Source: Escherichia coli
GTDB taxonomy: Bacteria > Pseudomonadota > Gammaproteobacteria > Enterobacterales > Enterobacteriaceae
DNA length: 64,000 bases
Assembly: GCF_016903815.1 (NCBI RefSeq)
Contig: NZ_CP069973.1
Direction: 5' to 3' (one strand)
Shown: one piece after another, positions 12,277 through 50,800 of the stretch
Position numbering within the stretch: position 1 is the first letter of the stretch
How the letters are laid out: the number at the start of each line of letters is the position of its first letter
Notes under the pieces: model-generated
What the model was told of the DNA's origin: nothing
The model's input: only the letters and a program-made list of their open reading frames with translations
The model's database searches: none
Translations under genes and position numbers: made by a program

Positions 12277-12900
12277 ATGTCAACGATTATTATGGATTTA
12301 TGTAGTTACACCCGACTAGGTTTAACCGGGTATCTGTTGAGTAGAGGGGTTAAAAAAAGAGAAATCAACGACATTGAAACCGTTGATGACCTTGCCATAG
12401 CTTGTGATTCACAGCGCCCTTCAGTGGTGTTTATTAATGAGGACTGTTTCATCCACGATGCTTCTAACAGTCAGCGTATCAAGTTCATCATTAATCAACA
12501 TCCCAATACGTTATTTATCGTTTTTATGGCAATTGCCAATGTTCATTTTGATGAATATCTATTGGTCAGAAAAAATTTATTGATCAGTTCTAAATCGATT
12601 AAACCGGAATCTCTCGACGATATCCTTGGCGATATTCTGAAAAAAGAGACAACGATAACCTCGTTTTTAAATATGCCGACGTTATCATTGAGCCGAACCG
12701 AATCGAGTATGTTGCGAATGTGGATGGCAGGTCAGGGAACCATTCAAATCTCTGACCAAATGAATATCAAAGCCAAGACCGTTTCATCGCATAAAGGTAA
12801 TATTAAACGTAAGATCAAAACGCATAATAAACAGGTTATCTACCATGTCGTCCGACTGACGGATAATGTGACTAATGGTATTTTTGTCAACATGCGCTAA
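12277..12900 (+). CDS. rcsA: capsule (colanic acid) transcriptional activator RcsA (207 aa)
   Basis: [24 protein letters not shown]... with C-terminal LuxR-type HTH; matches RcsA. Confidence 0.95.
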
Positions 12901-12943: not shown

Positions 12944-13222
<279 letters not shown>

Positions 13223-13294
13223 CTATACTTAAGAGATGCCAGGCGGACTTAACGACTGGCCGCAACAACAGAGTAACGGTTGCGAGGAAAGATG

Positions 13295-13522
13295 ATGAAA
13301 ACCGCAAAAGAGTACAGCGATACCGCAAAACGTGAGGTCAGCGTCGATGTCGATGCCCTGCTGGCGGCGATCAATGAAATTAGCGAAAGCGAAGTTCATC
13401 GCAGCCAGAACGATTCTGAACACGTTAGCGTCGATGGACGTGAATATCATACATGGCGTGAATTGGCGGATGCCTTCGAACTGGATATTCATGACTTCAG
13501 CGTCTCTGAAGTGAATCGTTGA
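13295..13522 (+). CDS. yodD: stress-induced protein YodD (75 aa)
   Basis: MKTAKEYSDTAKREVSVDVDALLAAINE... matches YodD; start chosen within the longer track ORF. Confidence 0.88.
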   Translation: MKTAKEYSDTAKREVSVDVDALLAAINEISESEVHRSQNDSEHVSVDGREYHTWRELADAFELDIHDFSVSEVNR

Positions 13523-13535
13523 ATGCACAATAAAA

Positions 13536-13622
13536 AAATCCCGACCCTGAGGGGGTCGGGATGAAACTTGCTTAAGCAAGAAGCACTTAAAAAATTCGTT
13601 ACACCAGGAAATCTGATGTGTT
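13536..13622 (-). ncRNA. dsrA: DsrA small regulatory RNA (Hfq-dependent activator of rpoS translation, anti-H-NS)
   Basis: Reverse complement reads AACACATCAGATTTCCTGGTGTAACGAATTTTTTAAGTGCTTCTTGCTTAAGCAAGTTTCATCCCGACCCCCTCAGGGTCGGGATTT, the DsrA sequence with its terminal hairpin and U-tail. Confidence 0.93.
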
Positions 13623-13801
13623 CATCACCTTATCCGCAATTTTTTTCGCTGACAAGAAAATATTCGTGATATGAATGATTAACGCTACTTATGAATAGAA
13701 ATGTGACGCGCGTCACCCCTTGGTGGCTCTGGCGTCAACGGGATCGCTCCCGAAAAAATCATCTTTGATAATTTGTGCTGTTTTGAGAATCATCCTGGTA
13801 A

Positions 13802-16326
<2,525 letters not shown>

Positions 16327-16397
16327 CCTGACGACTCCCAACCTGCTTTTTTATGATTCTGGCATAACCTGGCGATAGCGTACCGCAAAACAGCGAT

Positions 16398-47800: not shown

Positions 47801-50800
47801 CTGCACCGACGGGCGATACGTCCGCGCCCGCCCCATTGAACATCAACAGCGGGAATCACTGCTGACGGAACTTGCCGGTTATTGTGAAGGTTTTCAGGCT
47901 ATTCCCGACACCATCGCCCGTGCCGGCGATCGGTTATATGAAATGATGAGCGGCGCGGAAGAACCGGTGGCGATTATCTTCCCGCAAAGCGCCTCCGACG
48001 GCGTGGAAGTGCTGTATCAGGAATTCAGCTTTGGCCGCTATTTCAACCAAATCGCCGCCGGGGTATTACGCGGCATTGTCCAGACGCGTCAGCCCCGCCA
48101 GCCGTTGCGTATTCTTGAAGTTGGCGGCGGAACCGGCGGCACCACCGCGTGGCTGCTGCCGGAACTCAACGGCGTTCCGGCACTGGAGTACCATTTCACC
48201 GATATCTCGGCGCTGTTCACCCGTCGCGCCCAGCAGAAATTCGCCGACTATGATTTTGTGAAGTATAGCGAGCTGGATCTCGAAAAAGAGGCGCAGTCTC
48301 AGGGTTTCCAGGCACAGTCTTACGATCTTATCGTGGCAGCGAACGTGATTCACGCCACCCGCCATATTGGCCGCACGCTCGATAATCTGCGCCCCCTGCT
48401 CAAGCCGGGCGGGCGCCTGCTGATGCGCGAAATCACCCAGCCAATGCGTCTGTTTGACTTCGTTTTCGGCCCGCTGGTTCTTCCGCTACAGGATCTCGAC
48501 GCCCGCGAAGGTGAGTTATTCCTCACCACCGCTCAGTGGCAACAACAGTGCCGCCACGCCGGATTCAGCAAAGTGGCGTGGCTACCGCAGGATGGCAGCC
48601 CGACCGCCGGGATGAGCGAACATATCATTCTCGCCACGCTGCCCGGTCAGGCGGTTAGCGCCGTAACATTCACCGCGCCATCAGAACCCGTGTTGGGGCA
48701 GGCGCTGACGGATAACGGTGATTATCTCGCCGACTGGTCTGATTGCGCAGGTCAGCCCGAACAGTTTAACGCCCGCTGGCAGGAGGCCTGGCGTCTGCTT
48801 TCACAGCGTCATGGCGACGCTCTGCCTGTGGAACCGCCCCCCGTCGCCGCCCCGGAGTGGCTGGGGAAGGTTCGCTTAAGCTGGCAAAACAAAGCCTTTT
48901 CCCGCGGTCAGATGCGCGTTGAAGCCCGTCATCCTGCTGGCGAGTGGCTGCCGCTATCGCCCGCCGCGCCTCTTCCTGCGCCGCAAACGCATTATCAATG
49001 GCGCTGGACGCCCCTCAACGTCGCCAGCATTGACCATCCGCTTACCTTTAGCTTCAGCGCCGGTACGCTTGCGCGCAGCGACGAGCTGGCGCAATACGGC
49101 ATCATTCACGATCCGCACGCCTCTTCACGACTGATGATTGTTGAGGAGAGCGAGGATACGCTGGCCTTAGCGGAGAAAGTGATAGCAGCGCTCACCGCCA
49201 GCGCAGCCGGATTGATTGTGGTTACTCGCCGCGCGTGGCGAGTCGAGGAAAATGAAGCACTCTCTGCATCCCATCACGCGCTATGGGCCTTGCTTCGCGT
49301 CGCGGCCAACGAACAGCCGGAACGGTTGCTTGCCGCCATCGATCTCGCCGAAAACACCCCGTGGGAAACGCTGCATCAAGGGTTGAGCGCAGTCTCACTA
49401 TCACAGCGCTGGCTCGCCGCACGGGGTGACACCCTTTGGCTCCCTTCACTGTCGCCCAATACGGGATGCGCCGCTGAATTACCGGCAAACGTGTTTACCG
49501 GCGATAGCCGCTGGCATCTGGTGACCGGAGCGTTTGGCGGATTAGGCCGCCTTGCCGTGAACTGGCTCAGAGAAAAAGGGGCGCGACGCATCGCCCTGCT
49601 GGCGCCGCGCGTGGATGAGTCATGGCTACGCGACGTGGAGGGCGGGCAGACGCGCGTCTGCCGTTGTGATGTGGGCGATGCCGGGCAACTGGCCACGGTT
49701 CTTGACGATCTGGCGGCCAACGGCGGCATTGCCGGAGCGATTCATGCCGCTGGCGTATTGGCTGACGCGCCCTTGCAGGAGCTTGATGACCACCAGCTGG
49801 CTGCCGTTTTCGCGGTAAAAGCGCAGGCGGCAAGCCAGCTGTTGCAAACCCTGCGCAACCACGACGGACGCTATCTTATTCTCTACTCTTCCGCTGCCGC
49901 CACCCTCGGCGCGCCGGGTCAGAGCGCCCATGCGCTGGCCTGCGGCTACCTGGACGGGCTGGCCCAGCAGTTTTCCACCCTTGATGCGCCGAAAACGCTC
50001 TCTGTCGCCTGGGGCGCATGGGGAGAAAGCGGTCGGGCGGCCACGCCGGAAATGCTGGCGACGCTCGCCAGCCGAGGTATGGGCGCGTTAAGCGATGCCG
50101 AAGGCTGCTGGCACCTGGAACAGGCGGTGATGCGCGGCGCCCCGTGGCGACTGGCGATGCGCGTTTTTACCGACAAAATGCCCCCGTTACAACAGGCTCT
50201 GTTTAACATCAGCGCCACAGAAAAAGCCGCAACGCCGGTCATTCCTCCTGCTGATGACAACGCCTTTAACGGCAGCCTGAGCGATGAAACAGCGGTGATG
50301 GCATGGCTGAAAAAGCGGATTGCGGTTCAGCTAAGGCTGAGCGATCCGGCGTCACTGCATCCAAACCAGGATCTGTTGCAACTCGGCATGGACTCGCTGC
50401 TCTTCCTTGAACTCAGTAGCGATATTCAGCACTACCTGGGCGTACGCATCAATGCGGAACGGGCGTGGCAGGATCTGTCTCCTCATGGACTCACGCAGCT
50501 TATCTGTTCTAAGCCAGAGGCGACGCCTGCCGCTTCGCAGCCGGAAGTGTTGCGGCACGACGCCGACGAGCGTTATGCGCCCTTCCCTTTGACGCCCATT
50601 CAGCACGCCTACTGGCTGGGGCGAACCCACCTCATTGGCTATGGCGGCGTCGCCTGTCACGTCCTGTTTGAGTGGGATAAACGCCACGATGAGTTCGATC
50701 TCGCCATACTGGAGAAAGCATGGAACCAGCTCATCGCACGCCACGATATGTTGCGTATGGTGGTTGATGCCGACGGGCAGCAGCGAATCCTGGCGACAAC

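Follow-up and report, generated by a model that had tools for sequence, protein, structure and literature searches.

The palindrome between dsrA and yedP of Escherichia coli as the very probable core of an Escherichia-specific cAMP-CRP site, with a conserved RcsB-type box in the same control region

The window analysed here is the whole stretch of 64,000 nucleotides of Escherichia coli DNA, and the features of interest lie in its part between rcsA and dgcQ (Table 1). According to the open reading frame list, Rfam and RefSeq annotation, the local gene order is rcsA(+)-dsrB(-)-yodD(+)-dsrA(-)-yedP(+)-dgcQ(-), and the same order from rcsA to dgcQ is kept across Enterobacteriaceae. The sequence of the locus is 100% identical in E. 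coli strain E2865. The gene for the small RNA DsrA was located by Rfam, and the dsrA annotated by RefSeq for K-12 (2025223–2025313) reaches further in the 3′ direction, to the equivalent of 13532. As had been read from the sequence alone, dsrA is convergent with yodD. Expression of yodD has been reported to be strongly, and even purely, RpoS-dependent (bioRxiv 10.1101/2023.11.09.566509). DsrA controls the translation of RpoS and H-NS, so that any transcription factor acting on dsrA feeds the general stress response; in the literature of 2016, LeuO was still named as the sole known regulator of dsrA. For comparison between genomes, a DsrA sequence pattern was used to collect 84 loci from one-genome-per-species collections.

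Table 1. Genes and sequence features between rcsA and dgcQ, in window positions
Feature	Position	Strand	Basis and details
rcsA	12277–12900	+	
dsrB	12944–13132	-	
yodD, RpoS-dependent stress protein of 75 aa	13295–13522	+	ORF list, RefSeq annotation of identical sequence
DsrA intrinsic terminator	13532–13562	-	terminator scan; stem-loop 13538–13562 with 10 pairs, 7 of them G-C; U7 tract 13532–13538
DsrA small RNA	13536–13622	-	full-length match to Rfam RF00014, 102.5 bits, E 1.3e-19; +1 = 13622
dsrA core promoter	13627–13655	-	sequence relative to +1; -10 TAAGGT 13627–13632, -35 TTGTCA 13650–13655
cAMP-CRP site, TGTGA-CGCGCG-TCACC = aaaTGTGAcgcgcgTCACCcct	13702–13717	.	matrix score, published ChIP-seq and footprint, invariant half-sites
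14-bp palindrome	13703–13716	.	inner part of the CRP site; perfect only with the CGCGCG spacer allele
Conserved dyad CGGGATCGCTCCCG, family consensus GGGAWCGNTNCC	13740–13753	.	LacI-family-like core
Predicted yedP sigma-70 promoter	13765–13793	+	consensus scan, 9/12 matches; -35 TTGATA 13765–13770, -10 AATCAT 13788–13793
RcsB-box-like TGAGAATCATCCTG	13784–13797	.	13/14 to TN(G/A)GAN4TC(T/C)NA, last base G instead of A
yedP, mannosyl-3-phosphoglycerate phosphatase-related HAD protein	13820–14635	+	ORF list, RefSeq; divergent from dsrA
dgcQ	14632–16341	-	

The two hexamers of the dsrA core promoter are separated by an A/T-rich spacer of 17 bp, and the promoter block is kept across genera. The assignment of these hexamers as -10 and -35 elements follows the dsrA promoter as reportedly described by Repoila & Gottesman 2003. 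Outside the core promoter, A/T-rich blocks lie between -38 and -62 of dsrA (window 13660–13684), namely GAATGATTAA at 13674–13683 and AATATT at 13659–13664, and are conserved in Escherichia, Salmonella and Citrobacter. These blocks could be an UP-element or the site of a dsrA regulator. One locus of the comparison (L090, E. coli GmF046, NZ_CM183658.1) carries an IS4 insertion beside the dsrA start, at the equivalent of window position ~13626; the DsrA 5′ end was not found at this locus, and an intact dsrA at that position is probably absent.

At the other end of dsrA, the terminator hairpin faces yodD. The sequence-only reading had placed the hairpin 14 bp after the yodD stop, which is approximately right, as the TGA occupies 13520–13522 and the stem starts 15 nt after it; from the stop to the DsrA 3′ end, the distance is 13 nt with the Rfam end and 9 nt with the RefSeq K-12 end (13532). 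It had also been suggested that the hairpin acts bidirectionally and ends yodD transcripts as well. In bidirectional terminators, the hairpin is flanked by an A-tract on one side and by a U-tract on the other, and either strand therefore yields a hairpin followed by a U-tract. As in such terminators, two convergent genes here share a single G+C-rich hairpin that lies a few nucleotides beyond each 3′ end and is equally stable on the two strands: folding gave -20.8 kcal/mol (z about -4.6) for the plus strand and -19.1 to -20.2 kcal/mol (z about -4.9 at -20.2) for the minus strand. The closeness of the hairpin to the yodD stop, the conservation of the tight yodD-dsrA convergence across Enterobacteriaceae and the lack of any other plus-strand terminator-like site up to 13900 fit the idea too. 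However, a bidirectional terminator has a U-tract on each strand, and here it is present on the dsrA strand only. On the minus strand, the hairpin is followed by UUUUUUU, whereas the yodD-sense tail on the plus strand, GAAACUUG, has 2 U in 8 nucleotides, and 0–3 U in 8 nt were counted on this side in 75/75 loci analysed. The terminator scan, which found no plus-strand terminator in 13250–13900, called the minus strand only, and yodD 3′ ends at the hairpin could equally come from exonuclease trimming back to a stable structure. The proposed bidirectional action is thus not borne out by the sequence and is rated as doubtful. By its sequence, the DsrA terminator looks like an ordinary intrinsic terminator that works in one direction, its hairpin lying next to the yodD stop by coincidence, and weak termination or 3′ trimming of yodD RNA may take place there.

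The close convergence of yodD and dsrA is kept in nearly all of the 84 loci. Within it, an RpoS-dependent gene converges on the gene for an activator of RpoS translation, and the yodD strand has no canonical terminator. Termination of DsrA is known to be temperature-dependent, and together with the RpoS dependence of yodD this makes read-through in either direction possible. An unterminated yodD RNA would be fully antisense to DsrA, by which a feedback is possible.

Upstream of dsrA, the perfect 14-bp palindrome GTGACGCGCGTCAC described in the sequence-only reading was confirmed by reading the sequence and by script. Its distance of about 80 bp from the dsrA start was also correct, as it spans -81 to -94 relative to +1. 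The palindrome as such is no commoner than chance: the 64-kb window contains 5 perfect palindromes of at least 14 bp, and 5.5 ± 2.1 are expected from first-order Markov shuffles. Its significance comes from conservation and published binding data. The longest palindrome in the window is a perfect one of 18 bp, GGCAGACGCGCGTCTGCC, at 49645–49662, which has the central ACGCGCGT in common with the palindrome upstream of dsrA.

The palindrome is very probably the central part of a cAMP-CRP site in the divergent control region of dsrA and yedP, with the regulatory roles proposed below. It had been put forward as a possible regulator binding site, and motif, conservation and published binding all identify it as a site for cAMP-CRP. 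In its 22-bp form, AAATGTGACGCGCGTCACCCCT, the site occupies 13699–13720 and is centred on 13709.5, at -87.5 relative to dsrA +1 and at a distance of 110.5 bp upstream of the yedP ATG. The bases of the half-sites match TGTGA/TCACA at 9/10 positions and the left flank AAA fits the extended consensus; the right half-site is TCACC, not TCACA, and the right flank CCCT is poor and G/C-rich. With a CRP weight matrix built from 106 other, independent ChIP-seq sites, the score was 13.6 bits, more than at any other place in the 64-kb window and more than for the median bound site (12.9). Chance alone would give a score this high 0.55 times in 64 kb and 0.0017 times in the 197-bp intergenic region.

Binding of CRP at this locus is already published, so that the palindrome, which had been called unexplained, is contained in CRP ChIP-seq and Footprint-seq tables and is no new kind of element. 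In enterotoxigenic E. coli (ETEC) H10407, Haycocks et al. 2015 listed GGTGACGCGCGTCACA, the exact reverse complement of the 16-mer, for a CRP ChIP-seq peak upstream of yedP, which was among 111 high-confidence targets with a fold-above-threshold of 4. Wang, Stringer and Wade (bioRxiv 2026) reported aaTGTGAcgcacgTCACCcct by Footprint-seq under the label 'dsrA / yedP', gave a Kd of 6.3 nM for binding in vitro and classed the site among those not previously described. This motif was placed at NC_000913.3 2025393–2025408, where its distances are again 87.5 bp to dsrA +1 and 110.5 bp to the yedP ATG, and the K-12 allele differs from the site in the window by one spacer base. The published 'yedP' and 'dsrA-yedP' entries thus refer to the same locus, with an identical 16-mer in ETEC and the same two-fold symmetric half-sites around a free spacer. 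In the ETEC ChIP supplements, no H-NS or other entries were found for rcsA, dsrB or yodD.

The region upstream of dsrA is A/T-rich overall (32% G+C in 13623–13701), which would suit a palindrome bound by LeuO or H-NS in control of dsrA, since both prefer A/T-rich, curved DNA. The 16-mer itself, however, has 69% G+C and is unlike such DNA. It fits the CRP motif, and the published data show it occupied by CRP both in cells and with the purified protein. A LeuO- or H-NS-type element at this position is therefore regarded as highly improbable.

Comparison of the CRP site between genomes separates the half-sites from the palindrome. TGTGA and GTCAC are the same in all of seven Escherichia lineages, and all five positions 13707–13711 vary. 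Within E. coli, three spacer alleles cover essentially all of the ~5,300 complete genomes with the region, namely CGCGCG, which gives the perfect palindrome (2241 genomes), the K-12 type CGCACG (1471 genomes) and CGTGCG (1605 genomes); hence, the palindrome is perfect in 42% of E. coli genomes and its symmetry is broken by a spacer polymorphism in 58%. A fourth allele, TGCGCG, occurs in a divergent lineage (L022) and had no match among complete E. coli genomes. The sequence-only reading had named conservation in close relatives as the check on whether the palindrome is under selection, and the answer is divided: the 14-bp palindrome is variable in E. coli and absent outside Escherichia, whereas the CRP half-sites are invariant throughout Escherichia. 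Half-sites that stay fixed while the spacer varies indicate that selection preserves the CRP half-sites and not the palindrome.

Among the 84 loci, a CRP-grade site (at least 13 bits) was found only in Escherichia, comprising E. coli lineages, E. albertii, E. whittamii and two further species, and there it was always centred at -87.5 from dsrA +1. In Salmonella, Citrobacter, Enterobacter, Klebsiella, Leclercia and other genera, no CRP site was found near -87.5, where scores were below 8 bits. The CRP site is peculiar to Escherichia and was added to a control region of greater age, and its absence from all other DsrA-bearing genera implies that it is not needed for basic expression of dsrA or yedP. 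A separate, strong CRP-like sequence, TGTGATCGTGATTACG (13.7 bits), occurs in Pantoea wallisii (L052) at a different position, ~212 bp upstream of the DsrA-pattern match; the same locus also has an RcsB-like box with one mismatch.

The palindrome might also be read as an RNA or DNA hairpin that serves the minus strand as a small terminator or an insulator, or as a functionless chance palindrome. Conserved arms around a variable centre would suit a hairpin as well, the scan flagged the palindrome as terminator-like on the minus strand (a stem of 5 bp followed by ATTTCTATTC), and palindromes of such length occur at chance rate. However, the hairpin would be weak, with -6.2 kcal/mol against about -19 to -20 kcal/mol for the DsrA terminator, and it is followed by no real U-tract. 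T13702 lies outside the palindrome and would be unpaired in the hairpin but is invariant, as CRP requires, and compensatory changes in the arms that would keep the pairing but break TGTGA/TCACA were not seen. The invariance of the ten half-site bases in Escherichia, with spacer and flanks diverged, contradicts a chance origin, and CRP binds the palindrome sequence directly according to the published data. Both a structural role and a lack of function thus have very little probability.

For the CRP site, the question arises which of the two divergent promoters is the target. The predicted yedP promoter has a conserved -10 block and a non-conserved -35, and the transcription start predicted from this consensus-scan promoter only is at ~13799–13802. 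From there, the centre of the CRP site is at -90.5 to -92.5, and about -92.5 is one of the two commonest CRP positions in the ETEC study (Haycocks et al. 2015). The -35 of yedP is weak and not conserved, which fits dependence on an activator. The canonical class I positions are -61.5, -71.5, -82.5 and -92.5; in relation to dsrA, -87.5 falls between the last two and thus on the wrong helical face, so that simple class I activation of dsrA does not fit. On the side of the small RNA, Lin et al. (bioRxiv 2025, not peer reviewed) place DsrA among 25 CRP-regulated small RNAs, in the CRP-repressed group, on the basis of predicted sites, EMSA and northern blotting at 30 °C. A literature search found no report of CRP-dependent yedP expression. 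Whether the CRP site co-occurs with yedP or with dsrA gives no clue to the target, as the site is absent from all non-Escherichia genera with or without yedP.

The best estimate is that CRP acts on both promoters. At high cAMP, a CRP dimer at the site would bend the intervening DNA and most likely bring about class-I-type activation of the weak yedP promoter, from a position ~91 bp upstream of its predicted start; a modulating effect of CRP on dsrA, negative according to the preprint, would also be likely. An A-run at 13753–13758, polymorphic in length and sequence in E. coli strains and Escherichia species (AAAAAA, AAAAAAA, AACAAAA, AAAAA), shifts the yedP elements by 1–2 bp relative to the CRP site; the spacing to dsrA is constant.

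A different use of the site would be a second, class II promoter on the minus strand, driven by CRP and yielding a 5′-extended dsrA transcript or an occlusion of the main dsrA promoter. If the CRP centre is set at -41.5, AATCAT at 13681–13676 occupies exactly -12 to -7 and the start would be near 13668, and occlusion of the main promoter would yield the negative effect of CRP on DsrA described in the preprint. However, this is a proposal from geometry, no promoter was reported here by the promoter scan, and the GAATGATTAA block with AATCAT is kept in Salmonella and Citrobacter, which have no CRP site, so that its conservation is unlinked to CRP. A CRP-driven second dsrA promoter is accordingly considered improbable. 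A class II promoter on the plus strand was rejected, the hexamer at the required position being CGGGAT.

Among known systems, the CRP-regulated small RNA genes spf (Spot 42) and cyaR likewise have a CRP site upstream of an Hfq-dependent small RNA, by which carbon status is linked to it. In contrast to these, the site at -87.5 of dsrA is neither at the class II position nor overlapping the core promoter, and it is shared with a divergent protein gene and confined to Escherichia. The yedP side resembles class I CRP promoters near -92.5, with the site 90.5–92.5 bp upstream of a predicted start and a weak -35, but differs from them in having the dyad at 13740–13753 and the RcsB-like box at 13784–13797 between the CRP site and the yedP promoter or over the promoter. 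The araBAD and rhaBAD promoters are co-regulated CRP promoters, and by analogy with them the dyad and the RcsB-like box suggest that co-regulators might act at yedP.

These two elements coincide with the two islands that a multi-genus alignment found to be conserved across genera in otherwise unalignable sequence (13784–13797 and 13740–13753). GGGATCG, the most widespread 7-mer in the regions upstream of dsrA, was found in 25/81 of them at an offset of ~117 (sd 3) from +1. In other genera, the symmetry of the dyad is kept with other bases, for instance as GGGATCGATCCC, GGAACGATTCC and AAACCGGTTT. Such a pattern suggests a putative dimeric, LacI-family-like operator between the CRP site and the yedP promoter.

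The other island resembles the binding site of RcsB, for which the consensus TN(G/A)GAN4TC(T/C)NA has been described, with validated boxes at -161 and -215 from the start site (PMC7913699). A strict RcsB box was found at the orthologous position in 44/81 loci and a box with at most one mismatch in 65/81; an Enterobacter example of the strict form is TAAGAATATTCCTA. Altogether, 738 kb of loci contained 55 strict boxes, 44 of which were at this one position upstream of dsrA. Across the loci, the box has a fixed offset of ~157–161 nt upstream of dsrA +1 and its flanks carry no information; in the window, its counterpart lies ~166 bp upstream of +1. Loci with the RcsB-type box include L004, L010, L013, L024, L039, L050, L054, L068 and L083. 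Escherichia, including the window, has a one-base variant in which the final A is changed to G. Klebsiella, Raoultella, Trabulsiella and an Enterobacter sp. have lost yedP, with the convergent dgcQ following directly, and keep the RcsB-type box; its retention without yedP points to dsrA as the target. In E. coli K92, deletion of rcsB raised dsrA 7.6-fold at 19 °C (PMC3673037). The literature search yielded no report that RcsB binds here directly or that it directly controls dsrA or yedP.

Taken together, a layered control region of 200 bp may be tentatively proposed for dsrA, with an ancestral RcsB box, a CRP site at -87.5 acquired later in Escherichia and possibly a further layer of antisense RNA from yodD; this arrangement as a whole is possible but not favoured. 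In it, the RcsB box would be the strict consensus island in randomised sequence that is kept where the dsrA promoter is the sole one identified nearby.

For the CRP site, binding itself was known, and what is added here is the evolutionary context of a site found only in Escherichia, in which selection acts on the half-sites and not on the palindrome. If the site is regulatory, the availability of carbon would act on DsrA or on YedP, a phosphatase that is uncharacterised. Compared with the palindrome, the conserved RcsB-type box is the newer and more promising lead. Should the layered arrangement prove true, direct RcsB control of dsrA would close a loop of RcsB, DsrA, H-NS and rcsA, and the CRP site at -87.5 would couple DsrA, and thereby RpoS, to carbon status.
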